In this document: one piece after another, positions 5,624 through 60,742 of the stretch
Layout of the letters: every line of letters begins with the position of its first letter
How positions within the stretch are numbered: position 1 is the stretch's first letter
NCBI GenBank assembly: GCA_964535025.1
Contig: CAZHRW010000176.1
Span: 1 to 60,742 of the forward strand
Source: an uncultured Planctomycetales bacterium
Lineage (GTDB): Bacteria > Planctomycetota > Phycisphaerae > SM23-33 > FEN-1343
Length of the DNA stretch: 60,742 nt
Direction: 5' to 3'
Notes under the pieces: generated by a model
Told to the model about the DNA's origin: nothing
Databases searched by the model: none
What the model saw: the letters and a program-made list of their open reading frames with translations, nothing else
Translations under genes and position numbers: made by a program

Positions 5624-6241
5624 CTAGTCTTCTTTTTTGCCCTCGGGGGCGTCGTCCGTCTCGCCCTGAGCTTCGGGCGCCTCGGCGGTCGCCTCGGCCT
5701 CGGGCGCTTCGGCAGGGGCCTCGGCCGCCTCGTCCTCGGCGGCGCCGACGGCGGCGACCGCCTCATGCCGCGCCGCGGCCCGGCGCTTGCGGCGGGAGCT
5801 GCGCGACCCGCCCTGGCCGCCTCCGGCGCCGGTCTCTTCGACCAGTTGGAGGATCACCTGGCGGCCGGCGTCGCCGAGGCGTCGTTCGGCCAGGCGGATG
5901 ATGCGGGTGTACCCGCCGGGACGATCGGCGTAGCGCGGGGCGATGTCGTCGAACAGCACGTCCAGGACGCCCTTGCTCTGGGGGTTGCCCTCCTTGTCCA
6001 TCAACACGCCGCGCTCGCCGCGGCGGTTGCCCAGCTCGGCGCTGACGAGCCGCCGCGCGTGGACGGTGCCTTTTCGCGCGTGGGTGATCAGCCGTTCCAC
6101 GAAGGGCTTGAGATCCTTGGCCTTCGCCTCGGTGGTTCGGATCGCCCCGTGCTGGAACAGCGCGATGGCCAGGTTCCGCCGCATCGCCCTGCGATGGGCC
6201 GACGTACGATTCAGTGTTCTTCCGGATACGCGGTGCCGCAT
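5624..6241 (-). CDS. rplQ: 50S ribosomal protein L17 with acidic C-terminal extension
   Basis: MRHR...TTEAKAK...RPGGYTRI; follows rpoA. Confidence 0.97.
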   Translation of the reverse strand: MRHRVSGRTLNRTSAHRRAMRRNLAIALFQHGAIRTTEAKAKDLKPFVERLITHARKGTVHARRLVSAELGNRRGERGVLMDKEGNPQSKGVLDVLFDDIAPRYADRPGGYTRIIRLAERRLGDAGRQVILQLVEETGAGGGQGGSRSSRRKRRAAARHEAVAAVGAAEDEAAEAPAEAPEAEATAEAPEAQGETDDAPEGKKED

Positions 6242-6284
6242 GATGCCAACCTTCAACGTTGCGCCGCCTTGGAGCGCGGCGAGA

Positions 6285-7334
6285 TCAGTCTTCCTCGTCT
6301 TCGGTCCCGATCTCGTCTTCGCCGAACGCAACCGGCGCCGGCGATTCGGAGAGATTCACATTCAGTCCCAACGTCAAGCCGATGTCGGCCAGCTTCCGCT
6401 TGATTTCGCGGAGGCTGGTCTTGCCGAAGCTTCGCACCTTCAGCAGGTCCGCCTCGGTCATCTTGACCAGGTCGCCCACGGTTTCCACGTCGGCCGACTG
6501 GAGGCAGTTGCTGGCCCGCACGCTCAGGTCCAGTTCGGCGATGGGCATGCTGAGCTTCTGGTTGAGTTCCTGGTCGGCCTGGGAGGTTTGCTCGGCCGGC
6601 GGGCCGGAGGGCAGTTCGGCGCCCAGGTCGAAATACTGCACGAACGGATTGAGGTGCTTGCGCAGGATCTTCCCGGCCTCGACCATGGCCATCTCGGGCG
6701 TCAGGGTCCCGTTGGTCCAGACCTCGAGGATCAGCCGGTCGTAGTTGGTCTTCTGGCCGACGCGTGTCGCTTCGGTCTGGTAGCGGACGCGCGTCACCGG
6801 CGAGAAGGAGGCATCGACGTGGATGACGCCGATCTCCTGTTCCTCCTCGGGCGGCATCAGTTCGGCGGCGGGGACGTATCCCCGCCCGCTGTCGACGGTC
6901 ATTTCCATCTCGAAGTCCATGGCCTCCGACAGCGTCGCCAGCACCAGGTCCCGGTTGATCACCTCGATGGCCGGATCGGCTTCGATCATATCGGCCGTGA
7001 CCGGGCCCTTGGCGGTGCTGCGCACCACCATGCGCTTGGCGCCGGGGGTGTGCATCTTGACGATCAGGCTCTTGACGTTCAGGATGATGTCGGTGACATC
7101 CTCCATCACCCCGGGCAGCGACTGAAACTCATGGGCCGCGTTGCCGATCTTGACGCTGGTGACCGCCGCGCCTTCGATGCTGCTCAGCAGCACCCGGCGC
7201 AACGAGTTCCCGATCGTGGTGCCCAGCCCCCGTTCGAAGGGCTCGACCATGAACCGGCTGTAGGTCGGGGTCGACACATCCTGATCGCTGACCACGCGTG
7301 TCGGCAGTTCCAGGCCACGCCACCTAATTCGCAT
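6285..7334 (-). CDS. rpoA: RNA polymerase alpha subunit
   Basis: EPFERGLGTTIGNSLRRVLLSS; CTD LSVRASNCL. Confidence 0.98.
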   Translation of the reverse strand: MRIRWRGLELPTRVVSDQDVSTPTYSRFMVEPFERGLGTTIGNSLRRVLLSSIEGAAVTSVKIGNAAHEFQSLPGVMEDVTDIILNVKSLIVKMHTPGAKRMVVRSTAKGPVTADMIEADPAIEVINRDLVLATLSEAMDFEMEMTVDSGRGYVPAAELMPPEEEQEIGVIHVDASFSPVTRVRYQTEATRVGQKTNYDRLILEVWTNGTLTPEMAMVEAGKILRKHLNPFVQYFDLGAELPSGPPAEQTSQADQELNQKLSMPIAELDLSVRASNCLQSADVETVGDLVKMTEADLLKVRSFGKTSLREIKRKLADIGLTLGLNVNLSESPAPVAFGEDEIGTEDEED

Positions 7335-37256: not shown

Positions 37257-37329
37257 CACGGCAGGGAGGACTTGAACCCCCAACCTGCGGTTTTGGAAAC
37301 CGCTGCTCTGCCAATTGAGCTACTGCCGT
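37257..37329 (-). tRNA. tRNA-Trp(CCA)
   Basis: Cloverleaf, acceptor ACGGCAG/CTGCCGT, anticodon loop TTCCAAA. Confidence 0.96.
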
Positions 37330-37434
37330 ATCCGATCAGCGACGCGGCGCGTCTCCGTCGGACGGAGACGCGCCACGCACCGATCCTGGTTGTCAGGACG
37401 TCCCGCGCCGCCTCACGGGGCGGGCGGGATTCGA

Positions 37435-37602
37435 CTATTTCTTCTTGGTCTTGTGCAGGGTATGGGTTCGCTCGCGGGGGCAGAACTTCTTCAGTTCCAG
37501 CTTGCCGCCCCCGCCCTGGGTGCGGACCTGGGTCCGGTAGTTCAGCTCGCCGCACTCGCTGCATTGCAGCCACACGTATTCCCGCGGAGAGGCCTTGGCC
37601 AT
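37435..37602 (-). CDS. rpmG: 50S ribosomal protein L33
   Basis: CSECGELNY, LELKKFCP. Confidence 0.95.
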   Translation of the reverse strand: MAKASPREYVWLQCSECGELNYRTQVRTQGGGGKLELKKFCPRERTHTLHKTKKK

Positions 37603-37677
37603 CGCTCTGCTCCAAGTCTTTGTTCGCCGCACCGCCGCGGCCCCGCGCAGGGCAGGGCGGCGGCGGGTGGCGGCGCG

Positions 37678-38886
37678 TTACTCGAGGATCTTGGTCACCA
37701 CGCCGGCGCCGACGGTCCGGCCGCCCTCGCGGATGGCGAACCGCAGGCCCTCTTCCATGGCGATCTCGGTGTTGAGCAGCTCGACTTCCATGGTGACGTT
37801 GTCGCCGGGCATGCACATCTCGGCGCCGCCGAGCAGATTGATCGTGCCGGTCACGTCGGTGGTGCGGAAGTAGAACTGCGGGCGGTACCCGCTGAAGAAG
37901 GGGCTGTGCCGGCCGCCCTCTTCCTTGGTCAGCACGTAGACCTCGCCCTCGAACTTCCGGTGCGGGGTGATCGAGCCGGGCTTGGCCAGCACCTGCCCGC
38001 GCTCCAGCTCGTTCTTTTCGATGCCCCGCAGCAGGCAGCCGACATTGTCGCCGGCCTGGCCCTGCTCCAGCAGCTTGTTGAACATCTCGACGCCCGTGAC
38101 GGTCGTCGTGCGGGTCTCGCCGAGGCCGACGATCTCGACCTGGTCGCCGACCTTGATGATGCCGCGCTCGATACGCCCGGTGCCCACGGTGCCGCGACCC
38201 TTGATGGAGAAGACGTCCTCGATGGGCATCAGGAAGGGCTTGTCGACCTCGCGCAACGGCTCGGGGATGTAGCTGTCCAGGGCGTCCATGAGCTCCTGGA
38301 TGCACTGGGTCTTCTCGGGATCCTCGGGATGCTCGATGGCTTGGGACGCCGAGCCCTTGATGACGGGGGCGTTATCGCCGTCGAACTCGTACTTGCTGAG
38401 CAGTTCGCGGACTTCCAGCTCGACCAGCTCGAGCAGTTCCTCGTCGTCGACCAGGTCGACCTTGTTGAGGAACACCACCAGCGCCGGCACGTTCACCTGG
38501 CGGCTGAGCAGCACGTGCTCGCGGGTCTGGGGCATGGGCCCGTCGGCGGCCGAGACGACGAGGATCGCCCCGTCCATCTGCGCGGCGCCGGTGATCATGT
38601 TCTTGACGTAATCGGCGTGCCCGGGGCAGTCCACGTGGGCGTAGTGCCGGGTCTCCGTTTCGTACTCCTGGTGGCTGGTGGCGATCGTCAGAATCTTCGT
38701 CGCATCACGGCGGCCCTGGCTCTCGGAGGCCTTGGCCACTTCGTCATACGAGACGCTCTTGGCCAGCCCCTTGGCAGCTTGGACCATCGTGATCGCGGCG
38801 GTCAGGGTCGTCTTGCCGTGGTCCACGTGACCGATCGTGCCGACGTTCACGTGGGGCTTCGTACGTTCAAAGACCTCCTTGGCCAT
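37678..38886 (-). CDS. tuf: Elongation factor Tu
   Basis: [21 protein letters not shown]; [10 protein letters not shown] effector variant. Confidence 0.98.
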
Positions 38887-38997
38887 GGTCGTTGCTCCTG
38901 CTTCGTTGCGTTTCCACGGGCCCAAGCCTTCGCCGGGCCCCAATCCTGTTGAATTTCGTCTATCCAGTCGTCGCGGCCGGGCCCTGGTGCCCGCCGA

Positions 38998-39069
<72 letters not shown>

Positions 39070-39126
39070 ACATCTGCCGAAAAACCCAAGGTATACCGCT
39101 CGCGCAGTCTACAAGGTGAACGGAGC

Positions 39127-39154
39127 ATTATGACGCATTCACGGGGGGTGTCAA
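39127..39154 (-). promoter_or_regulatory. Putative promoter for tRNA-Thr-tuf
   Basis: TTGACA-16 nt-CATAAT. Confidence 0.65.
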
Positions 39155-39303
39155 ACCAAAAATCACCCGCCGAAAGCAGAAAATGCTCCGCCAGGACTTG
39201 GCCGGCACCCGCCTGCGGGCGCCGCCACGGGCCTAACCGCCGATCGCCGCCCGCCGAACCCGAACCGCCGGGCGTCGACCGACCGCCTGCCGGCGACGTC
39301 AAC

Positions 39304-39376
39304 AGCGGGCGACCGGGGTCGAACCGGCGACATCCAGCTTGGAAGGCTGGTGCTCTACCCATTGAGCTACGCCCGC
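39304..39376 (-). tRNA. tRNA-Gly(TCC)
   Basis: Cloverleaf, CCAGC-CTTCCAA-GCTGG. Confidence 0.96.
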
Positions 39377-39459
39377 ATGCGACCAGCATCAGCATGCCGG
39401 ACGGCCGCATCGGCCCCGAACGCGACATCCGCGTCGCCGAAGCCGGCATCATCTATATA

Positions 39460-39541
39460 TGGGAGCGGGTGGATTCGAACCACCGTAGGCTGAGCCGTCA
39501 GATTTACAGTCTGATCCCTTTGTCCACTCGGGCACACTCCC
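39460..39541 (-). tRNA. tRNA-Tyr(GTA)
   Basis: Cloverleaf with long variable arm, TCAGA-CTGTAAA-TCTGA. Confidence 0.96.
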
Positions 39542-50400: not shown

Positions 50401-52797
50401 GGCCTCGGCATCGTCGCTGGAGGTGTCGGCGTCGCCATAGCCGTCCTCGTCTTCATCGCTGAACGACTTGCTCCTGGACAGCTCGATGAACCGGTCGTAG
50501 ACGGTCCAGCTCAGCACCTCCACGTGCAGGCCGTACGAGATCGGCCCGGGCGTGACGTTGCCCTCGATGTCCGAGATGATCTGGAATCGCGAGCCCGCCC
50601 AGAACCCGGTCCACTTGTGCGCGAAGTCGATCAACTCGAACCCGAACACCGGATCGCTGAAGGTCCAACTGTCGGGCGTGAAGAACCCGTAGTTGACGTC
50701 GCGGACCTCCAGATCGAAAACGTAGCCGACCTCCTCCTGGAACCGGGCGGCGTAACTGATCTCGTCCTTCTGGAACCATTCCGGCAACATCAGCAGGTCC
50801 ACGTCGAAGCTGTACGCCTGCGACACCCCGTCGGCGACGACGACGAGCGGACCCGGCGCCGCCAACTGGGACATGTTGATCTCGGCGGTGAACCCGTCGG
50901 CGGGCTCGTCGTCCACCACCGTCACGCCGCCGACAGAGAACGAGACGGTCTCGGCGGCGCCGTCGAGCTCGGCGGTGAAGGTGGTGAGGACCTCGGGGAC
51001 CTCCGGCCCGGCGATGTAGCGCATCGGGTCCTGGAACTGCGGGTCGTCAGGATCGCGGCTGGAGGTGACCGAGGTGATCACCGGCACCGTGTAGCCGGCG
51101 GGGATGACGACCACGCCGGCCGAGGCGCTCAGCGCGGTGTTGTTGAACTCGCCGGCGCCTTCGGGCACCACGTCGTCGGCGTCGACGATCGCCATCAGGT
51201 AATAGCTGCCCCGGGCGGCGTCCGGGGGGAGGGTCGCCGATTCCATCACGGTACGACCGGCGCCGGGACCGAGCGGATCGGTTTCGATCCATTGGCCCAC
51301 GAGGATGTCGTCGGCGTTGCCCCGGGTTTCATCCAGCGAGAGCACCAGCTGGATCGCGAATCCGCCGGGCGCCGAGCCGTCGCCGAGGTTGGTGAGGACC
51401 AGCGCCGGCGTCAGCGAATCGCCCGGATGGTAGTAGCCCTGGGGGTAAGCCTGGAGGTCCACCGTCAGGTCGGCGGTCCCGCCGGGGCCGGCGGCGGCGG
51501 CGACGAACACGTCGACGGTCGCGTTGGCGTCCCCGTCGACCAGGTTGTCGGCCCACGACTCGAACGCGACGAACCCGCCGTCGGCCGAGATCGCCGGGGC
51601 GGCGCTGTCGTCCTCGGCCTCGACGCCGCCGGGCCCGTCGCTCAGACGGCTGACGGTGCCCTGGTGCCGGTCGACCAGGAACACATCCGCCTGCCCGTTG
51701 GTGTCGGCGGCCACGAGGTTGCCCGCCGTCGAGATGAACGCCACGAACCGCCCGTCGCCGCTGAGCGACGGCGTCATGCATTCGCCGTCAGCGGCGCCCG
51801 CGGCGGCGGTGCTGATCCGCTCGGTCGTGCCCGCGACGGTGTCGCGCAGGTAAATATCGATGCCGAAGTCCGCCGGCGCCGCCACCAGGTCGGTCGACGA
51901 CGAGACGAACGCCACGTACCGCCCGTCGCCGCTGATGTCGGGATAGGCGCCGGCGCCCCGGTCGGCCTGGTGGCCGCCGTCGCCGAGGCTCACCCGTTCG
52001 GCCGTCCCCGCCTGCATGTCGCGGACGAACACATCGGGCGCGCCGTTGGTGTCGTTCGGCGCCACGTTGGCGGCCGCCGAGACGAACGCCACGCGCTGGC
52101 CGTCGTCGCTGATGGCCGGCTGATAGCTCGGCCCGCTCAGGGGCGTGCCGTCATAGCCGATCGCGACGACCGGCTCCATGCTCAGGTCGGCCAGGTCGAT
52201 CCGCCAGATCCCCATCGACCCGAGGTAGGGCCCGGACATCGGCATGTACTCGACGGCGACGAAGGCCCCGTCGCCGCTGAGGGCCGGTCGCCCGCTGAGG
52301 ATCCCCATGGTGCCGGCGATCGGATGCGTCACGCGCTGAAGCTCGCCCGTGGTGGTGTCGTAGACGAACACGTCGGGGATGCCGTTCCCGTCGTCGTCGG
52401 TGAGCTTTTCGTTGTAGGACAGGAAGGCCACGTACCGGCCGTCGTCACTGATCGTGGGGGCCGTGCTGGGCCCGCTGATCCGGATCGGGGACGGCAGACC
52501 GGTGTACCCCTCCGCGCTGCAGCAGGTCAGTTGGCCGGTGAGGCGGTCGACCACGAACACGTCCGACGCCGCGTTCTCGTCGCCCTCGACGAGATTCTCC
52601 GCCTCCGAGGCGAACGCGACGAACCGCCCATCGGCACTGATGGCGGCGGCGGTGCTCGGCCCGTTGCCGGGCAGGCCCGTCTCCGTCAGGCTCACGAGCT
52701 GCGGCGGACCCGAGCCGTCCAGCAGAATGCGGGATTCGAGAACTTCGAAGGCGGGTGTCCGCGAATCCGGCTCAAGCGATCGATCAGGCATACCCAT
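47437..52797 (-). CDS. Large extracellular multidomain protein (LEPR-like motif, PD40/TolB propeller, CARDB, Ig-like/tandem-95, dockerin-like repeats)
   Basis: FEVLESRILL; repeated ISADGRFVAF; ADLTV..YYLMAIVD; YTPAADFNGTDAFTY; 4x GDxDxDGxVDLDDF...NFG. Confidence 0.88.
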   Translation of the reverse strand: MGMPDRSLEPDSRTPAFEVLESRILLDGSGPPQLVSLTETGLPGNGPSTAAAISADGRFVAFASEAENLVEGDENAASDVFVVDRLTGQLTCCSAEGYTGLPSPIRISGPSTAPTISDDGRYVAFLSYNEKLTDDDGNGIPDVFVYDTTTGELQRVTHPIAGTMGILSGRPALSGDGAFVAVEYMPMSGPYLGSMGIWRIDLADLSMEPVVAIGYDGTPLSGPSYQPAISDDGQRVAFVSAAANVAPNDTNGAPDVFVRDMQAGTAERVSLGDGGHQADRGAGAYPDISGDGRYVAFVSSSTDLVAAPADFGIDIYLRDTVAGTTERISTAAAGAADGECMTPSLSGDGRFVAFISTAGNLVAADTNGQADVFLVDRHQGTVSRLSDGPGGVEAEDDSAAPAISADGGFVAFESWADNLVDGDANATVDVFVAAAAGPGGTADLTVDLQAYPQGYYHPGDSLTPALVLTNLGDGSAPGGFAIQLVLSLDETRGNADDILVGQWIETDPLGPGAGRTVMESATLPPDAARGSYYLMAIVDADDVVPEGAGEFNNTALSASAGVVVIPAGYTVPVITSVTSSRDPDDPQFQDPMRYIAGPEVPEVLTTFTAELDGAAETVSFSVGGVTVVDDEPADGFTAEINMSQLAAPGPLVVVADGVSQAYSFDVDLLMLPEWFQKDEISYAARFQEEVGYVFDLEVRDVNYGFFTPDSWTFSDPVFGFELIDFAHKWTGFWAGSRFQIISDIEGNVTPGPISYGLHVEVLSWTVYDRFIELSRSKSFSDEDEDGYGDADTSSDDAEASDGSFNGSLTGELIFSFSDDLDWEGAAGRITLAMDYSRDFTFFTMRYPIYTSVPGLLDAVVGGGMTISLSLGASLVAQLDSESVLKMTDIGIFTSATIAPKVFVGVEALCGLLGQVHSSLFGALTQEISFEWDGELGFDIAAPGALDLGFEISGGLLLDLFHWSKSWTWRVAQWDFFANDGDDVVMTEDDPLTGGPHVLDVVMASDGHGNALAVSVYDDPTDPSGHRHDLRVRSRTALGDIWGPTEPLTASSAVESSPAVAYDAAGVPYVVWVQGRTDAADLDTMTYEQLAAEQDLRIARYDAQRESWQIEALTDDAYNHGAPAIAFAPGSADGVAVWERAAADADLIDVAGQEIVYRSSDGAAWAPVAALTDNGYAEWGAQVAYTGDNRPVVVWLGDEDEDRTVNRDASPSTSVHAAAWNVATEQWDAATLVADGQASNQYVKLVRTPDGAVEAFWVSFDGRRYSLCTSRYDGTQWSAVDVVLADWTFIGEPSVTVDEDGRVCVLYTGMEGMQFNVYRIDRASPWSPPRVLTRGGWAASKIAAVAELGGTLAVQSIFNGGFSDPTASTSYLDPDGSSAGGLVALALTPRLTQDDAFATAEDTAVISGDLLANDVDAGADLTVIDYTQGGHGAVAYNGAGAFTYTPAADFNGTDAFTYTVVDSSGREDAATVTVTVAALNDRPAADAIAADVAAGEPGTIALNGSDVETAMAGLFFEIVVAPQHGQVSLADHVATYTPDAGYEGADSFSYTVLDRGDPIGVDALTSDPAVVSITIAPALTSRPGDADCDGDVDLDDFVVVKLNFGRTGATWAQGDFDGNGTVDLDDFMSIKQNFGPGKSGDADGDGDVDLDDFLALKQNFGRADARWPQGDFDANGAVDLDDFGILKQNFGTRAAPVDSLALMIAARPDPEAAVWMKDTLGPGRQERTGTPAMELKSVHVGPQRRLRRRRASRLASDPRALEINVLEMLSAALPGAMPGIAKRPTRR

Positions 52798-53307
52798 GCT
52801 CCTCCACCGACTCGAAGTCTGTCCGCACCCGTCCGGCGCCCGGAGCCGGCCGCCGGTCCGGGCACGCACATCAACAGACTCGCCATAGAGGTGAACGCAA
52901 AGAGCCCTCCCCAAGGCCAACGCGGGGCCTTCCTTGCGCCGCTTCGCGGCATGACGATATCGTCGCCATTATACCACGCATTCGCGTTTTGTCGAGTTCC
53001 GGATGCGGGTTGCGGGGCAGAAAGGAGGAACAACGTTCGGCGCCCGTATCGGCTATGTCACGCAGCGACGACCGTCACACCACGGTGCGGACCTCCCCCG
53101 AGGAAAGCCCACGCAATGCTTGCGTCGGTCGAGGCGCCAATGCGTGCGTGAGCCGGCCTCTGCCAAAATCACCCTCGACGATCTCGCCCAGACGGTGGGG
53201 TTGTCGTGATTGTGCTGTTGCTGTGGCCGCACCTCTAGTCTCAGGCCTCTGGCCTCTGGCCTGCCGTTCTGAGGAAGCCGGCCCTCAGCGCAGCCGAAGT
53301 CGAAGAT

Positions 53308-53423
53308 CCTGAGCTTGTCGAAGGGGGGGGGGGATCTGCCGGGGGGGGGGGGGGAGAAACGCGAGCAGTGGCGTTGAGCCGTGTCGCCTGTTCTCCTGGC
53401 CAGCCCTGAGCCTGTCGAAGGGC
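53308..53423. repeat. Two REP-like CCTGAGC-n2-GTCGAAGGG elements flanking poly-G runs
   Basis: 53308-53325 CCTGAGCTTGTCGAAGGG; 53403-53423 GCCCTGAGCCTGTCGAAGGGC. Confidence 0.7.
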
Positions 53424-53464
53424 TCTCGTGCCGCTTCGCGGCACGCGGGAGGTGGGGGTAGATG

Positions 53465-53524
53465 AGCCGCCGGTCAACGGCCGCTCCCCGTTCCTGTCGC
53501 CGCCGCGCCACCACTCCACGCTAC
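53465..53524 (+). repeat. Group II intron 3'-end (domain VI) remnant A
   Basis: AGCCGCCGGTCAACGGCCGCTCCCCGTTCCTGTCGCCGCCGCGCCAC...CTAC matches the 3' end of the intron at 60434+. Confidence 0.8.
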
Positions 53525-53562
53525 CGGAATTATGACGACGTCCCCCGAAGTACGATGCAGCC

Positions 53563-54372
53563 TTACGCCAGGTTCTCCATCACCGCTTCGGCCAGTTCGT
53601 TCCCGGTGGAAAGGTAGCCATTGTTTGCCTGCACATACTCGATGATGGCTTGGAGGGCCTTCAGGCGCGAGTCAAGTATTTCCATCTTGGGGTGCATCGA
53701 CAGGCTCATGTATCCGCCCTGTTCCTTGACCGCATCCACTTCCTCTAAGACCAGCGCTTTGAACTGGCCGGCCGACCGCCTGTTTACTTCATAATGAGGA
53801 TAATCATCGAGGTACGTGCTCACCGGCAATTCGACCACAGCCCCCCGGTCCGGCTCATGGACAAGGATGTACGGCGCATTCGAGTCCATCATGCTGCTGT
53901 CGTGTTTGAAACCAAACTCCGAGATCAGCGTCACTGTCCCCTCATTCATCCGCCAGTACGGCGCCCGGAACCCGGCCGGGGGCCCGCCGAAAAAGCTTTT
54001 GCAGAGCGCATCTGACTTTTCGAAGACCCCGCGCTCTTCTTCCGCGGAAAGATGGATCAAATGCTCATGCAGATACCCATGGCATCCGATCTCATGGCCC
54101 TGGTCGGCGATCCGGGTGATGAGTCCCGGATGCTGTTCGATCAACCACGTGCAGATGTAAAAGGTCGTCTTGACACCACACGCATTCATGATGTCAAGCA
54201 GCCGACCAATCGCCCCCAGTCCCGCTCGACCCCGCGTCAGCGAAACATAATCGCGCGGCTTCTCCCTGACCTCCGGGGCATCGGCCTCGAAATCAAACGA
54301 AAGGAAAAACGCGAACGACCTGCCCTCCGGCCACGTCCATTCTATTGTCCGCTCCTGACCTGACTGATTCAT
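53563..54372 (-). CDS. Polysaccharide deacetylase (CE4/PuuE-like)
   Basis: SFDFE, GHEIGCHGYLH, GFRAP, DSS, MHP motifs. Confidence 0.9.
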   Translation of the reverse strand: MNQSGQERTIEWTWPEGRSFAFFLSFDFEADAPEVREKPRDYVSLTRGRAGLGAIGRLLDIMNACGVKTTFYICTWLIEQHPGLITRIADQGHEIGCHGYLHEHLIHLSAEEERGVFEKSDALCKSFFGGPPAGFRAPYWRMNEGTVTLISEFGFKHDSSMMDSNAPYILVHEPDRGAVVELPVSTYLDDYPHYEVNRRSAGQFKALVLEEVDAVKEQGGYMSLSMHPKMEILDSRLKALQAIIEYVQANNGYLSTGNELAEAVMENLA

Positions 54373-54559
54373 CTGACATTTCCCATTTGAACTCGGCCCG
54401 GCGACGCCACCGGGCGTTGGATGGCCATTTGTACCCCCTGAGCCGGTCGCGCCCAAGCGATTCTTCGTCTTTCCAGCCGGGTATCGAGCAGATCGTCGAG
54501 GAGCTGTGGTCTCCGTTCGACGCCGAGGAGAACGGGGGCCGCCACGACGACTTGTCTCG

Positions 54560-54600
54560 CCCCCCGCTCCCGTCGCCACAGCGCCACATCTCGACGCTAC
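54560..54600 (+). repeat. Group II intron 3'-end remnant B
   Basis: CCCCGCTCCCGTCGCCACAGCGCCACATCTCGACGCTAC followed by CCGA. Confidence 0.8.
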
Positions 54601-54649
54601 CCGATCAGGAGAATGCGTTTGCCCTCGTGGACCACCTCAGTTCGCAACA

Positions 54650-54940
54650 TTATTCGTCGCCCATGAAGGGTAGTATCTCCATACTCTCTGGTATAGTCTC
54701 CAGAACCCGTTCGACTGCTTCTCGCATTTCCTCAGTTAGCCCATCACGTGTCTGTTTCTCAGCTGGCAGCATCATCCAGCATACATTGACTACTCCGCGA
54801 AGCATCCTGTTAAGGCCAAGCGGCCCAATTCGTCTTCGAAGCTCGTCCAACTGCTTCTTGAGCTCCTCAGGGTCTTCGCCATTTGCATTCAAAAACAGCA
54901 TACCATCATCTCCCGCTTCTTCAATTCCGGGGACGCGCAC
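54650..54940 (-). CDS. Hypothetical acidic helical protein (lower GC)
   Basis: 96-aa ORF with protein-like composition; no recognised motif. Confidence 0.5.
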   Translation of the reverse strand: MRVPGIEEAGDDGMLFLNANGEDPEELKKQLDELRRRIGPLGLNRMLRGVVNVCWMMLPAEKQTRDGLTEEMREAVERVLETIPESMEILPFMGDE

Positions 54941-54975
54941 TTAATACTTCTATCCTATCTCATCCGGCCCGGTTT

Positions 54976-55711
54976 TCATCGCGTTGCCCTTTGACGCTTC
55001 GGTTTGGGACCGCGCTTCTTGGGTGTCAGATCGCGTCCGAGCAGACGGCCCAGCGAGGCCAGGAAGCGGCCGTCCCCGATAGGACGGCCTGCCGTGAGCC
55101 TTGTCGAACGGGCCGGTCGTCTCGCCGCGACGCAGCAGCGGGGCCACTGTTTCGCAGTCATCCCGGGCGAGGTACTCGCCCCACGGGCAGATCCAGCCGG
55201 CAATACGCTCGGCGAGCCAGCCGGTCTCTGCGATGGCGTCCGGACGGCCGCCGACGTGGGCCGCGGCGCTGCTCCAGGACCAGTGCTCGGCCCGCTCGGC
55301 CAAGTGCGCTTTCACCGGGTTGCGCTCGATATACGCCGCGGCATTCAGAAGATACGCCTCGTCCATCACGGCCGACCCGAACCGCCCCTGCCACAGGTAG
55401 CCCCGCCAACGCTCCCGGAAGTTGATCCGCCGCGTGTACCGCACGTGCACCTGGCCCACGGCCGCCGCCAAGGCCTTCTCCTCGCCCGGCACGAGCACCA
55501 GGTGCACATGGTTGGGCATCAGGCAGTAGGCCAGCACCCTCACGCCGCAGCGGCCGCACTCGTCCTTCAGCAGCGACAGGTACGCCCGGTAGTCGTCATC
55601 GCAGAAGAATGTCTGCTGCCGCTGGTTGCCCGTTCGACGCCGCTCACGGCAGGCCCGCTGCGTCACATGGTGCGGCATCTCCTGAACCACGATTCGCCCC
55701 GTTCTGCCCAT
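54976..55711 (-). pseudogene. HUH Y1 transposase (RAYT/IS200-like) interrupted by two mini-insertions
   Basis: PHHVTQR-GN, AYCLMPNHVHL, GYLWQGRF, YIERNPV; 24-bp in-frame insert at 55631-55654 and 25-bp frameshifting insert at 55090-55114. Confidence 0.88.
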
Positions 55712-55718
55712 GCCCAAC

Positions 55719-55747
55719 CCTATAGCACGCGTGGGGAACACCGTCAA
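55719..55747 (-). promoter_or_regulatory. Putative sigma70 promoter of the transposase (likely leaderless mRNA)
   Basis: TTGACG-17 nt-TATAGG, then 7 nt to the ATG. Confidence 0.55.
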
Positions 55748-55757
55748 TATTATTAAG

Positions 55758-56527
55758 ATCGCGGTAGGGACGGGCCTTTCGGCCCGCCCCCCGCACAGAT
55801 CCGTACGTGAGGAACTACCTCATACGGCTCCTACCTTGGGTCGTGCCGTCGGGCGTTCACGTGCAACGCCCGGCGCGAGCGGACCGATCCTCTGCAACGC
55901 TTCCGGCCGGCTCTGTGTCCGACTCACGCGCGATCGGTCAGCCTTGCCCGTGGTCACCGGCCTTCCCTCCCGCCGGTCCGCCGCCGCTGTGGCCGTACGG
56001 GGTCTACGGCCCCAGGCGGAGGGTTCCCAGTCGGGCCCTTTCGGTTGCCCGGTGGGGTCACAGTTCCGCCGTCACCGTCAATCACGCGCGGCCGGGTTTT
56101 GTTCCCGGCGTTCTGCGGTACTACGCTGGTGTCAGACTTCCCGCCGGCGTGCACGTCAGGCGTTCGGCCACAGGCCTTCCCTGACCGACCCGATCGCGGC
56201 CATCGACGCCGCGAGGCGGGTACCGACGGGATCTCCCGGTTCTCGGGCATGGAGCGTCCATGCATGCTCGGGGTCTTCGACTCCGCGGGGCCGATGACGC
56301 GGCTCGCGAGAACGCCACGCATCGTGTTGCCTTCCCTTACGCGCAACGAGGTCGGCACCCCGGAAAGGGTGATTACGGAGCTCAATACCCGGCCTGCATG
56401 GTTCCCCTGTCAACGCTTGCGTCGTGCCCTTGCGGGCGCACCGCCATGACTCGGGGTCGTGGTAGGTCGCTACTGCCTCACGGTATGGCGCTTGCATCCA
56501 CTACGCTCCGTCAGTTACTGGCGCTTC
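55758..56527 (-). mobile_element. ORF-less group II intron (resembles bacterial class E)
   Basis: DV GAGCCGTATGAGG-TAGTT-CCTCACGTACGGATC (55798-55830); DVI ending CCCTACCGCGAT; DI motifs CCCGAGTCATG, GCGTTGACAGGGG, GAGAACCGGGAGATC; no RT ORF; 5' end approximate. Confidence 0.88.
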
Positions 56528-56557
56528 TCCCCGGAACTCCGAACTCGCGAAGAAGTG

Positions 56558-56593
56558 CGTTCTCGTCGCCACTGCGCCACATCTCGACTCTAT
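56558..56593 (+). repeat. Group II intron 3'-end remnant C
   Basis: CGTTCTCGTCGCCACTGCGCCACATCTCGACTCTAT. Confidence 0.8.
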
Positions 56594-56760
56594 CCCAAGT
56601 CCACAGAATCGCCACAAAGCGACTGAGACGACCGCGAGACACTATGGGCAAGCATGCACATCGGATGCCGGAGCAATCGGCCTCTCGGGAGCGCAGCCCA
56701 CCATGAGTAGGCAACTAATCAGAACAAGAATTGCCAGAAGATATCGACAATGGCTTATCA

Positions 56761-57204
56761 TCAGCGAGCTCCAGAGATCTCGACACGGTACCTCTCGGCG
56801 GACCCCTGCAGACTCGAGCAGGAATACGCCTTGGTTTCCTGAGAACGCAACACAACCGTCTCAATCGCCGACTCATCGACTTGGGCCCCATCGGCGGTGA
56901 AAAATTTCGTTTGAACATCAAGACGCTGCATGTGGTCGGTTCGATTGCGCAAGGCAATCTCCACATTCATGAAGCCGGTCGGCGTTGTCGTCTTAACATT
57001 CCGATCGACAGCGATCTTCGACTGTTTCTCCCACGGCAGCCACGCCGTCCAGTTAGTGATCGATCTATCCAGTATGAGCACTGTATTGTATGGAATGGAC
57101 ACATCAGCATTAGAGATGGCAACTGACGGTCCCTCGGTCCTGCATCCGGCGAGGATGGGCACGCTCAACACCGCCGTAACAACGAAGACCCTGAATGAGG
57201 TCAT
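56761..57204 (-). CDS. YcfL/DUF1425-like lipoprotein
   Basis: Lipobox LAGC; LRNRT...QTKFFTADG; adjacent to the LpoB-like gene. Confidence 0.7.
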   Translation of the reverse strand: MTSFRVFVVTAVLSVPILAGCRTEGPSVAISNADVSIPYNTVLILDRSITNWTAWLPWEKQSKIAVDRNVKTTTPTGFMNVEIALRNRTDHMQRLDVQTKFFTADGAQVDESAIETVVLRSQETKAYSCSSLQGSAERYRVEISGAR

Positions 57205-57218
57205 GGCTCTGTCTCCTC

Positions 57219-57848
57219 TTATCGATAGATTGTGGCCGTACTGGCAACCTTTTTGAATTCGTACCGGTCGGACCAGACGATCCGACCTGACCCACGTTCG
57301 ATAAGCTCGAAAGTGATCAGAAAATAAGAACTCCTGGCCCCAGTGGCGGGAACGACTTTTGATATTGAACGGATAGCGCCGCCAAGGCGGTAGTCCCAGC
57401 CCAGTCTCGTGGAGGGCGAGACAACGGCCCCGGCTGTCACGTTGCCACTGGCCTCGGAAGCCCGCTCAGTCTCAATCATGTCGTCATAGTTGCGGCCCAG
57501 CACCTCGAAACGACCGCCGGAGACTTTTTGCAGATCAACGCGAAGGTAATCGGTGAACAAGGCCTTATCGATAATCTGCGTGCTCTCGTTCACGAAGTAC
57601 TGTTCGTCAAGCACGATTCGAGGTGCTCCGTTAGCTCCGACGATCTGCGGCGTGTTCATGATGGATCTCGCCATTCGATCGGCTGCGGCCCGCAGTTCTT
57701 TGGAGTCGATGCCGCAGCCCGGCAGAGGCTGGGACGGCGGGTCGACGAATGTGGAACTGCCTCCAGGGCGATTCTGGATGCGCGCACAGCTGGGCATCAC
57801 AAGCAGGACAAGTGCGACCAGAAGGGTGAAGACGGTTCTTGTTCTCAT
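57219..57848 (-). CDS. LpoB-like lipoprotein
   Basis: Signal + Cys; FVNEST..ID; DYRLGGAI; FELIERGSGRIVWS..FKK. Confidence 0.75.
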   Translation of the reverse strand: MRTRTVFTLLVALVLLVMPSCARIQNRPGGSSTFVDPPSQPLPGCGIDSKELRAAADRMARSIMNTPQIVGANGAPRIVLDEQYFVNESTQIIDKALFTDYLRVDLQKVSGGRFEVLGRNYDDMIETERASEASGNVTAGAVVSPSTRLGWDYRLGGAIRSISKVVPATGARSSYFLITFELIERGSGRIVWSDRYEFKKVASTATIYR

Positions 57849-57881
57849 AGCAGCATCTCCTGACGGGACGAGACGCCCCAC

Positions 57882-59150
57882 CTAGCGCGGGAACCATGCC
57901 AGCGCTATCGTAGGCCTCTCACCCGACGTCGCAGGTATCACAAAGGAACCTTGAGCGATTGCCTTATCGGCAATGTTTCGCAACTCGACCTGCACGGTGT
58001 CCCCAGGCTGCAGAGTGTTGCTGACCCATACATAGAAGTACCCGGGAATAGCCCCGACCTGTCGACTATCCGCATCGATGTCGATCTTTGTACTGCCATC
58101 AATGGCCGCCGCCGCGGCCAGTTGTATGGCCAAGCCTATCGGCCCGCCGACCGCGCCCGCCACGCCAAGCCCCACTGACCCAATCCCCTGAAGGTGCTGC
58201 CGGCTACGTTCGCGAGCGCGGATCATATCGTCGACGTTCCGTCGGCCGCGCGTAACTGCTTGAATATACACGCTGTCAGTCAGCCAAGCTGGGCAGCCCT
58301 CGACGTGCACGCTGGCCACCTTGGATTCTGCCGCCTCGTACATCAGTTGCCCTTGCCCGTACTTGACCGGAGGGGATCCGGCGCAGACGACCACGATGGT
58401 GAGACCCTTTGCGCCTAACCGAGCCAACGATTCGGTGTCCACCCAGCCTGCGTCATCGTATGTATCAGAGTATGTCGCTGCTATCATCTTAATGTGGTCG
58501 TCGGCGCGAACGTCGCTTCCGTAGAGCCGGAACGAGAGCGTCGTGAGTATGTCGGCGGTCAGCCAATTCGAGCGCATCTCGTCCTGCGTGGACATGGCAT
58601 CGGCAAGCGTGGCCTGAAGAAAGCAGCTCTTGGCGTTCTCGGGGTCGTTCTTCGCCAAGTAGACCAAGCCTCGGAAGATGTAGATTGCGGCGGTCTCGTG
58701 TGGTTCTCCCGCAAACGCCTTGGCGCGTTCCGAACCACCAGTGCCACGTACGCGGGATGTCTGGGATTCGTCGGCAGCGATTGCCTCTGACAGTTCCAGC
58801 GCACGATCGAGTGCGCGGGCCGCTATGTCCATTTCATTGGCGTAGCACGCCAGGATGCCGCAATCTGCCGCCCTTATAACCCCATATTGCCATGAGTCCT
58901 CGGCCATTCGGCTCTCCAGAAGGCGCAATGGGGGAGCAAGCTTCGCGACCTTCTGTTCGCTCCCCAGCAGGGCCACATGGAGGGGGTACACGCGCGACCC
59001 GTCGTAGGGGTCGACAAGGCGCAGGTCGCCACTGTTGACAGCTCGGTTGCTGCTGACCCAGAGTCCACAGCCTGAGCAAGCGACCAGGACCGTGCAGCAC
59101 AGCCCCAGAGCCAGCATGAGGCGAGACGCCGATGGAGGCGCGTAGATCAT
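57882..59150 (-). CDS. TPR-like lipoprotein (COG3014-like)
   Basis: Signal/lipobox, FAGEPHE motif, helical repeats, G.PPVK; operon context. Confidence 0.65.
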   Translation of the reverse strand: MIYAPPSASRLMLALGLCCTVLVACSGCGLWVSSNRAVNSGDLRLVDPYDGSRVYPLHVALLGSEQKVAKLAPPLRLLESRMAEDSWQYGVIRAADCGILACYANEMDIAARALDRALELSEAIAADESQTSRVRGTGGSERAKAFAGEPHETAAIYIFRGLVYLAKNDPENAKSCFLQATLADAMSTQDEMRSNWLTADILTTLSFRLYGSDVRADDHIKMIAATYSDTYDDAGWVDTESLARLGAKGLTIVVVCAGSPPVKYGQGQLMYEAAESKVASVHVEGCPAWLTDSVYIQAVTRGRRNVDDMIRARERSRQHLQGIGSVGLGVAGAVGGPIGLAIQLAAAAAIDGSTKIDIDADSRQVGAIPGYFYVWVSNTLQPGDTVQVELRNIADKAIAQGSFVIPATSGERPTIALAWFPR

Positions 59151-59770
59151 TGTGCCTGTGCTACCACATCCGGCATGACTTTAGCCATCAGGTCAGCCAT
59201 TGCCGCCTGGAATATCCTCTCATACTCTGCGGCTGTCCCCACGCCCAACCCTCCTTTGTGGATACCGACATACTCCTTGCTCGCGACCGGAGCGCCATTC
59301 CTGTGAACGATGATGTTTACCTTCAGTGTGCAGACTTGGCCGCCGAAGAACTTCATCTTGGAATAGCATTCACTCAGCGAACCGCTTATGCCTAGCTCAC
59401 AGTCAGGTGGCAGCGCTGTGACCTGAAGGGGCTGGAAACCGTGTTGATGAAGCTCTTTCGTAAGAGCATCGGTAATCCACGGACTCAGGTCCATCGACTT
59501 CGATACGACCGTGGCCGTCCTTATGTTGTAACCGTTGACGACGTCGCCGATCTCCCGGCCTTTGTCGTCGCGCAGCCGGCGATTCTGACAGACGTCCTGG
59601 ATTGGGGCCAGGTAGACTGCAATCCCGTTGCCTTGACTGGAGACCGCTGGCGTCGGGGTATAGCTCAGCGCGACCACGCGGTCACCAAACGCACACCCGA
59701 CGCATGACAACGAAAGCCCGATCAGTGCAATGACGTGAATACTGTGGATCCTCTTCCCTGCAAGAACCAT
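59147..59770 (-). CDS. Lipoprotein (YajG-like)
   Basis: CVGCAF lipobox; 4-nt overlap with the next gene. Confidence 0.6.
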   Translation of the reverse strand: MVLAGKRIHSIHVIALIGLSLSCVGCAFGDRVVALSYTPTPAVSSQGNGIAVYLAPIQDVCQNRRLRDDKGREIGDVVNGYNIRTATVVSKSMDLSPWITDALTKELHQHGFQPLQVTALPPDCELGISGSLSECYSKMKFFGGQVCTLKVNIIVHRNGAPVASKEYVGIHKGGLGVGTAAEYERIFQAAMADLMAKVMPDVVAQAQ

Positions 59771-59904
59771 TCTTCGTCTCCTCGAAGGAAAACCGGTGCA
59801 AGCCGCCTGGTACAGGTCAGTCGGCGCACAAACCGCGAAATGCAACGCCGCCTAGCGGATCCCCGTTGGACCCAATATAATAAGACGAGAAAGACGCAAC
59901 AAGT

Positions 59905-60318
59905 CCGAACCCATTCAGTCCTCCCCAAGACTTTTTTTAGACGGACGTGGCCCTCCATCAACTCGGCGATGACCTCGTCCTTGCGGGCCAGCTTGGCCGC
60001 GAGCTTCTCGACCCGCTCTTTGAGCCGGCGACTCTTGGCGTCGCCGGCCGAACGCCGACTCTCGAAGGCGGCCGGGCCGTTCTCGAAGAACTCCTTCTGC
60101 CAGCGGTAGAAAGCCGTGGGATTGCGGGCGTGCTTGTCGCAGACCTGAGAGACCGCAGCTTTCTCGACCAGATGCTCCTTCAAGATCGCCACCTTCTGCT
60201 GGGCTGTGAACCGCCGTCGAACGCGCTTCTGCGCGTCACCCATGGACATCTCCTTCCCGCTTGGTCGTACTATCTAACCGAAGCGGGCCGGATGTCCAAC
60301 TCCGACTGAACCTTTACA
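59905..60318 (-). mobile_element. IS3-family remnant (left end + orfA; orfB lost)
   Basis: TGTAAAGG terminus, HTH orfA RRRFTAQQKVAILKEHL...FYRWQKEFFENG, coiled coil, A7G slippery run, then unrelated sequence. Confidence 0.82.
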
Positions 60319-60433
60319 CCGTCGCAAACCCCGGACGAAACCCATTGTCGGAAAGGCCTATGTGAATTTACCACGACTGCGGACATGCGTCAAACAGAAA
60401 ACGGGACAATCTGGTTCGTTCTGGTTCGTTCGG

Positions 60434-60742
60434 GTAGAGTCGAGATGTGGCGCGGTGGCGACAGGAACGGGGAGTGGCCGTTGACCGGCGGCTTTCGCCG
60501 TGTGCCGGTGCCTCAGTCCGTTCGATAACTCCGTCTCCACATCCCGCTCATCGAACCGGACGTGCGGTTTTCCCGCATCCGGCTCTCGGACAAGGACTCA
60601 TGCGTTCGCACACGGATAGCGACGCGGAAGCCGCGGCAGACGCACCAGGCCGTATCGCTCGGCCAGGTGACGGTCGGAGTATCGTGAATCCCCGCCACTG
60701 TCCACCTTATGCTTCTCGCACAGCCACCGGCGGAGCCGCGTC
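60434..60742 (-). mobile_element. Group II intron, 3' portion (extends beyond window)
   Basis: DV GAGCCGGATGCGGGAAAACCGCACGTCCGGTTC (60553-60585); extended DVI ending CACATCTCGACTCTAC. Confidence 0.92.
60598..60741 (-). CDS. Group II intron-encoded RT/maturase, C-terminal end (partial)
   Basis: Manual translation TRLRRWLCEKHKVDSGGDSRYSDRHLAERYGLVRLPRLPRRYPCANA*; stops just before DV; no endonuclease domain. Confidence 0.8.
   Translation of the reverse strand, partial: TRLRRWLCEKHKVDSGGDSRYSDRHLAERYGLVRLPRLPRRYPCANA

Follow-up and report, generated by a model that had tools for sequence, protein, structure and literature searches.

Introduction

Fragmented copies of group II introns in bacteria were reportedly compiled by Dai and Zimmerly in 2002 (cited in PMC2504315 and PMC5894124). 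Such fragments are non-functional partial copies that lie in intergenic and mobile-element-rich DNA, and incomplete reverse transcription is one of the causes named for them; in PMC2504315, which cites that compilation, it is given as a possible source of fragmentation at either end. Here, we describe fragments of this kind in an uncultured Planctomycetales bacterium (GTDB lineage Bacteria; Planctomycetota; Phycisphaerae; SM23-33; FEN-1343; assembly GCA_964535025.1, 4.28 Mb in 299 contigs, genome G000). The window that we analysed is the whole of contig CAZHRW010000176.1 (C176; 60 742 nt). Towards its end, three short pieces of the 3' end of a group II intron (tips 1–3) lie among gene blocks, on the strand opposite to a resident copy of the same intron family (family A). 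The locus belongs with the known fragmented bacterial introns: it is best regarded as ordinary debris in which the traces of failed insertions are unusually clean. Compared with the fragments already described, the tails found here (our term for such 3' pieces in general) are very short (25–180 nt), always include the 3' end and number 12, against two copies at contig ends.

Two described situations are close to this one. Retrohoming of a linear intron RNA with an unattached 5' end yields precise 3' junctions, together with 5' truncations, exon deletions and extra bases (White & Lambowitz, 2012; PMC3280974). The combination of a precise 3' junction with heterogeneous 5' junctions is shared by our tails; in that study, however, a lactococcal intron was injected into fly embryos, whereas the copies considered here are natural genomic copies in a bacterium. 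Ku (PF02735) was not found in this genome, which is 95.7% complete, an absence to which we give no weight. RmInt1-type introns (bacterial class D), for their part, have an intron-encoded protein (IEP) limited to reverse transcriptase (RT) and maturase, as do the relatives of the intron described here, home into mobile elements, transpose ectopically and leave intergenic remnants, but the remnants described in PMC5894124 and PMC4181065 are 5' fragments, whereas the tails here are 3' ends. A plasmid search with a member of the intron type described here returned nine Sinorhizobium records, with no Sinorhizobium meliloti among the best 25 rows. Since the survey of PMC3522654 discarded matches below 100 bp, tails of this size would be missed by it. 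Our literature search, outside which subscription papers largely fell, returned no account of abundant intron 3' tails shorter than 100 nt.

LINE-1 elements are known for 5' truncation and for 3' transduction. Their dead-on-arrival copies resemble the tails, with a 3' end that is fixed and a 5' end that varies; unlike them, the tails carry no transduced flank, and their 3' boundary is set by ribozyme chemistry and not by a poly-A tail. Integron cassette arrays also place co-oriented short repeats between gene blocks, but the contig studied here holds no integrase, its repeats are of unequal length and its genes run in the opposite direction. Group IIC introns, finally, are the terminator- or attC-targeting kind, whereas the relatives of the intron described here are of the D1D4-4 type.

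The tips and the resident intron copy

An earlier note on this DNA, made from its letters alone, had reported three co-oriented plus-strand copies of an intron 3' end, each stopping at the splice junction. The repeat search of the window and BLAST both confirmed this. Segment 60429–60493 has inverted matches at 53465–53529 (65 nt, 89% identity), 54562–54604 (43 nt, 91%) and 56558–56598 (41 nt, 88%), and the three plus-strand tips form one direct-repeat family (79–87% over 38 nt). In the whole-genome BLAST search (E-values of 1e-15, 1e-08 and 9e-07), all three are in register with the last base of the intron. Their identity to the resident copy is 88–91%. The similarity of the bases that follow the junctions, also pointed out earlier, holds as well: CGGA for tip 1, CCGA for tip 2 and CCCA for tip 3, compared with CCGA for the resident copy. 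The tips consist of only the 3' strand of intron domain 6 (D6) and have no Rfam match of their own, which makes them fragments. Logan contigs from two sequencing runs, which may be of the source sample, span tips 1 and 2 (53325–55075) and tip 3 (56508–60458). Because of these bridging contigs, and because no long exact words are common to the tips, the layout is not an assembly artefact.

We use 'family A' for the intron family of the resident copy, which in the window is cut 309 nt from its 3' end. Its minus-strand segment 60434–60587 matches RF00029 with 45.7 bits (gathering score 40). Domain 5 (D5; approximately 60553–60587) is canonical, while D6 (60434–60552) folds into a hairpin that is unusually long, about 117 nt, and has its bulged A at 7 nt from the end (z = -3.85). 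With D5, D6 and its bulged A, and AY at the splice site, this segment has the features of a group II intron 3' end. It is preceded by the end of an RT/maturase open reading frame (ORF; 60588–60742, minus strand), of which only the last 51 residues lie in the window; they have no Pfam match and resemble, by eye, the C-terminus of the public relative L099.

Neither a 5' part nor a full-length copy of family A was found in the assembly of this genome. L167 is a metagenome contig carrying a full-length relative that is 88% identical to the last 335 nt of the window and 91% identical to an RT-gene piece on contig C103. The relatives are of the Rfam D1D4-4 type (RF02003; 104 bits for L167, 85–102 bits for five public copies) and measure about 2 kb when full length (1.95–2.06 kb). 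The IEP of the one member scanned, the public relative L099, has 443 residues with RVT_1 and GIIM only (TIGR04416, 341 bits); as judged from sequence, the relatives of family A encode an RT-maturase devoid of an endonuclease domain. The 3' exon of the full-length relative (L167 2392–2521) matches a short repeat present in many genes of our genome, in which a dockerin-like motif can be seen by eye.

Intron 3' ends across the genome

The genome contains 14 family A 3' ends by BLAST, all ending on the same base. The length of two of them, the window copy and that on C90, is masked by contig ends. The other 12 are internal and shortened at the 5' side, to about 33, 34, 36, 37, 39, 42, 49, 55, 60, 81, 87 and about 180 nt. 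On C103, the RT-gene piece is fused to a tail of 49–54 nt. One further fragment, on C23, has D5 but no 3' end; there (2212–2320), about 45 nt of the 5' terminus of the ORF-less intron listed in the table are fused to the reverse complement of the family A D5. Runs X1 and X2 show this fusion too, in a contig that links opposite strands at 56497/60556. In L167, a 39-nt piece of the same ORF-less intron 5' end also occurs, 67 nt upstream of the full-length intron.

The bases that follow the 3' ends carry a short signature: by hand count, with the C171 tail shifted by 2 nt, there is a C at position +1 in 12 of the 14 cases, a G at +3 in 13 and an A at +4 in all 14. The flanks of 18 tips, taken from four genomes, are unrelated both upstream and farther out than +6, the exception being one 14-nt match near tip 1. 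An exact 3' junction, a variable 5' end and a conserved 3'-exon motif are together what characterizes a scar of target-primed reverse transcription, and the family A 3' ends have all three.

The 3' ends are strongly clustered, with eight pairs lying within 7 kb or less when 0.23 would be expected, a value reached in none of 20 000 permutations. The C90 copy has a tail 1.4 kb away from it, and others lie 3.8–6.9 kb from the window copy, all inverted relative to the resident copy. In a GC-skew check, both contig-end copies are on the G-rich strand while the tips are mixed (about 7–8 on the C-rich strand, four on the G-rich strand). Outside the window, tips adjoin gyrB, a HAD hydrolase gene near dnaN, AnmK, sulfatases and PEP-CTERM genes. 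The tails at C171 18495–18528 and C103 4789–4842 are near dnaN and gyrB, which are typically origin-proximal genes, although this is anecdotal.

A third intron family of this genome, encoding a 486-residue protein, has at least nine copies (C166 7391–9365 and eight at other contig ends), all of which break contigs and have six identical bases following the splice site. Also on C166 (approximately 6183–6326), a repeat about 140 nt long has dozens of copies across the contigs, many of them at contig ends.

Target recognition and 5' junctions

To locate exon-binding site 1 (EBS1), 17 full-length members were compared with their 5' exons and the loop was read by eye. It occupies the loop of a hairpin about 215 nt from the start of the intron, and in L167 this loop is complementary to the last five nucleotides of the exon. 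A column-wise covariation scan of the exon against domain 1 was dropped, being too noisy.

The most informative 5' junction is on C33, in which the target is followed by the first 7 nt of the intron and then by its last 87–91 nt. The 14 consecutive bases formed by seven of the target and seven of the intron are identical to the 5' junction of L167, and no bases are shared at the break, according to our reading by eye. The retained first 7 nt point to reverse splicing that was complete and to a subsequent internal jump. In G001, a genome of the same genus (the sister genome), the 5' flank of a 41-nt tail on C268 could be aligned with the 5' exon of L167 over about 28 nt using MAFFT; BLAST reported no match. 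For the C171 and C90+ tails, GTCC(C) directly precedes the tail. The 3' strand of D6 itself resembles the target, and 9 of 17 tail starts fall, by eye, within this stretch of about 12 nt. The sequences show an exact 3' junction and a target-like 3' exon, and they appear to retain the 5' exon, which is clear on C33, suggestive for G001:C268, C171 and C90+, and not evident for tips 1 and 3.

Relatives and public loci

As the earlier note had suggested, we searched the tip sequence genome-wide and in relatives, and short tails turned up widely, those elsewhere in this genome mostly beside ordinary genes. G001 has seven family A matches: in five the 3' end is present (one lies at a contig end, and the others measure 25 to about 44 nt), and the remaining two are internal pieces. 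In two genomes of the same order, the tails measure 27, 91 and about 185 nt. We also scanned public genomes, one per species, with a 20-nt motif of the D6 3' strand; at least 120 places matched and 80 were fetched. These 80 loci comprise 19 full-length introns, 22 limited by contig ends and 39 shorter ones, about seven of the latter being ORF-less forms of 720–790 nt. About 23 of the 80 are tails of 260 nt or less; Proteobacteria, Acidobacteria and Planctomycetota are among the phyla that carry them, and a few, of 20–24 nt, may be due to chance. Rfam gave no match for three shortened copies (L003, L004 and L008).

Concerning synteny, correspondence with relatives stops at the tip itself for the C171 flank and 1.25 kb before the tip for the C184 flank, and the neighbouring contig for C103 ends at that point. 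We claim no enrichment of synteny breaks near tips, there being no background rate.

Origin of the tails

That the tips are insertion scars, and the array incidental, is very probable. In its full form, the explanation that we favour is that they are scars of separate site-specific insertions by a single, presumably endonuclease-less intron family, truncated at insertion, which we consider probable. The simpler alternative given in the earlier note, repeated abortive retrohoming at a hotspot, is thus the one that the evidence favours. An RNA–protein particle would recognise a short target, consisting of a 5' exon ending in GTCCC paired with EBS1 and then C(C/G)GA, with L167, the closest full-length relative, as the model. 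The intron would reverse-splice into this target, which would fix the exact 3' junction. DNA copying would then start on the 3' exon side and break off after a few dozen bases, and the nascent strand would switch or jump to the 5' exon, or to the first bases of the intron as in C33, leaving the 5' exon, a tail of 25–180 nt and the 3' exon. Such insertions would persist only between genes. The tips fill, by eye, the three sizeable intergenic gaps of the stretch, and since surviving insertions are expected only there, they appear to punctuate the gene blocks. The clustering in the window would come from the resident copy 3.8–6.9 kb away, combined with insertion-tolerant, low-GC, mobile-element-rich DNA; in general, it may reflect action near the donor copy or, equally, tolerance in junk-rich DNA.

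A number of observations weigh against this explanation. Group II RTs are normally very processive, and a break-off after 25–90 nt is odd. Most tips, including tips 1–3, have no clear match to intron-binding site 1 (IBS1) abutting the tail, and the boundaries of the tips are blurred because the 3' strand of D6 itself resembles the target. Since no full-length family A intron is assembled in this genome, its EBS is taken from L167, at 88% identity. The EBS2–IBS2 pairing is visible in several members, but none was found for the 5' exon of L167 itself, and only EBS1 was used. The C171 tail marks the left edge of a 2-kb sulfatase block, and the sister genome has no such block between these neighbours. 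Two other intron families of this genome, the one with at least nine copies at contig ends and the ORF-less type of 55758–56541, have no short tails, and no short 3' tails were present among 36 matches in three other genomes rich in this intron type; the high share of tails is therefore a feature of this genus and not of the whole intron type. This abundance is lineage-specific. Bacterial intron fragments usually lose their 3' end and not their 5' end, according to PMC5894124 and PMC4181065. Lastly, the C33 and C103 copies fit a later deletion in DNA equally well.

Later deletion is the principal competitor. Full-length introns would have been inserted at each site, and deletions reaching from near the 5' splice site into D6 would have left the tail. 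The seven intron bases retained in C33 and the RT-gene part retained with the tail in C103 are what such deletions would produce, and ordinary decay is going on, with two internal fragments lacking the 3' end in G001 and the D5 piece on C23 joined to a fragment of another intron. The window tips, given their divergence from the resident copy, could be old, and the target-like stretch of D6 in which tail starts concentrate could guide short-homology deletions. On the other hand, random deletion should often take the 3' junction, whereas 12 of the 13 internal family A fragments of this genome keep it exactly; no family A 5' fragments are present in the assembly, and the C33 break shows no shared bases. 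We consider later deletion possible although rather unlikely as the overall explanation, and truncation at the moment of insertion only slightly the better supported of the two timings.

Two further readings, each of low probability, involve rearrangement. In the first, the tips are old breakpoints, at which homologous recombination between dispersed intron copies shifted or deleted DNA and left only the tail. The composition shifts at tips 1 and 3, and DNA-level synteny with the sister genome is absent from about 47 kb on; recombination between intron copies is also mentioned as a source of instability in PMC5894124. Yet recombination between copies keeps full-length or reciprocal parts, not tails of 25–90 nt whose 3' junctions are exact and whose 3' exon is target-like; with tails inverted relative to the resident copy, it would invert the intervening DNA and not delete it, and the 5' exon identity to the true homing site in C33 and G001:C268 is a further difficulty. 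This makes it improbable. In the second, the tails would be more than debris: reverse-spliced RNA at replication forks, or recombination seeded at tails, would repeatedly make breakpoints that join foreign gene blocks. An endonuclease-less intron would then help to assemble accessory-gene islands in this genus, as the pairings of a tail with the deacetylase, a tail with the lipoprotein operon and the C171 tail with a sulfatase would illustrate. In a milder form, the tails would record reverse splicing without productive reverse transcription as a frequent outcome, strongly biased to sites a few kilobases from the donor. This second reading is just as improbable as the first.

The reading put first in the earlier note, that an intron tail and the DNA downstream of it move as a unit, whether because the RT copies a read-through RNA or because of recombination at D6, so as to build an integron-like array, is the least probable and is not supported: it could draw on three co-oriented tips that each precede a low-GC block, on the strong clustering, on the position of the C171 tip and on cargo with no DNA-level match in five relatives, but the 3' flanks of the 18 tips, like that of the resident copy, are alike over no more than 4–6 nt, so that no downstream flank of a source is carried along as in 3' transduction, and the cargo blocks, expected elsewhere behind introns, are all single-copy in the genome. 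Neither do the tips (60, about 39 and 36 nt long and differing in their 5' ends) have the conserved architecture of attC-like sites, as judged by their lengths, without an attC model, and none of the six tyrosine recombinase (PF00589) matches of the genome is on C176. Many tips have housekeeping genes as neighbours and no evident cargo; in two runs, no contig spans a block from one tip to the next, although contigs cannot show absence; and, by established splicing chemistry, excised intron RNA carries no flank. The earlier note also held that tips scattered at random, with no link to cargo, and a cargo order conserved in genomes without tips would speak against capture. This is borne out only in half: the scatter is not random, as the tips cluster, and the relatives have no cargo at the DNA level whose order could be compared.

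Gene blocks and the rest of the window

The lower-GC blocks of minus-strand genes reported after the tips were borne out by Pfam and Rfam matches and by composition. The GC content is 54–61% over 53.5–60.4 kb, compared with 68.8% for the genome, but that of the transposase and the ORF-less intron is 66–70%. By DNA and protein search, every block is single-copy in the genome. No OrfB/rve partner is apparent between the IS3-type ORF and the operon, for which no dedicated scan was made. Run X3 contains pieces of the deacetylase and of the 96-residue ORF and none of the lipoprotein operon, at a very low depth that deprives this of evidential weight. The features of this part of the window are listed below.

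Table 1. Features of the terminal part of the window (positions in C176).
Feature	Position	Strand	Evidence and remarks
5' flank of tip 1: poly-G tracts, repeated hairpin element, 14-nt match to the stop-codon end of an ORF	53290-53464	+	Sequence comparison
Tip 1, last ~60 nt of intron family A (D6 3' strand)	53465-53524	+	3' exon CGGA; 89-90% to 60434-60493
Polysaccharide deacetylase (Polysacc_deac_1), block 1	53563-54579	-	PF01522, E = 2.6e-19; likely start near 54372 by eye
Tip 2, last ~39 nt of intron A	54562-54600	+	3' exon CCGA; 5' boundary uncertain by ~10 nt
96-aa ORF, no family	54650-54940	-	Pfam scan
IS200-like Y1 transposase (Y1_Tnp)	54950-55747	-	PF01797, E = 6.9e-12
Group II intron, ORF-less, from another family ('O'; of the D1D4-6 type in Rfam)	55758-~56541	-	RF02005 149 bits, RF00029 42.8 bits; 5' limit by copy comparison
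Tip 3, last ~36 nt of intron A, ends CTAT	56558-56593	+	3' exon CCCA; 5' boundary uncertain by ~6 nt
Four-gene putative lipoprotein operon: weak DUF1425, LpoB, weak TPR, one without family	56761-59845	-	Pfam; single copy
IS3-type OrfA-like ORF (HTH_Tnp_1)	59722-60249	-	PF01527, E = 3.7e-10
Resident intron A copy, cut by contig end	60434-60742	-	RF00029 45.7 bits; fold; 88% to full-length relative L167

The surroundings of tip 1 deserve a closer description. In the sister genome, the end of the ORF that provides the 14-nt match sits 8 nt upstream of a 39-nt tail, and a remnant of the C-terminus of this ORF can be recognised by eye upstream of tip 1. The ORF upstream of the sister tail has a ParB-HTH match only, which is weak and below the cut-off. 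Tip 1 may thus lie within a piece of a mobile element, one that is itself targeted. The two poly-G tracts (11 and 14 bases) are within 53316–53355, and the Logan contigs of two runs stop at 53323 and restart at 53325. The repeated element (53405–53450), which terminates in a GC-rich hairpin (8 bp, 4-nt loop), is also present on C184 (approximately 50680–50720 and 51700–51737) and on C268 of G001. It is near intron fragments in both genomes and may be related to the Y1 transposase.

The ORF-less intron lies directly upstream of the Y1 transposase (54950–56541), and the pair recurs on C33 (10365–10621) with the transposase truncated; the two may form a composite mobile unit. Further copies of the transposase are on C241 (1–568) and C221 (1525–1869). 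Within its ORF in the window, there is a 28-nt inverted repeat (89%; 55086–55113 and 55628–55655) with arms 514 nt apart.

At the other end, in positions 1–700, the contig begins inside a reverse transcriptase (partial RVT_1). It is followed by an adenine-rich stretch with, by eye, an N-rich motif typical of the template repeat of a diversity-generating retroelement; no variable repeat for such an element was found within 14 kb. Positions 37257–39541 hold four minus-strand tRNA genes.

Implications

Capture as first proposed would have been a new route by which bacteria collect genes; the evidence leads instead to ordinary retroelement debris. What deserves attention is the high ratio of tails to full-length introns in this genus and the strong local clustering. 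Surveys that drop matches below 100 bp may undercount past intron activity. With exact 3' junctions, retained target bases, one copy keeping the first 7 nt of the intron and clustering near resident copies, the tails would constitute a natural record of failed insertions, one relevant to how introns without an endonuclease bring DNA synthesis in cells to completion, or fail to do so.

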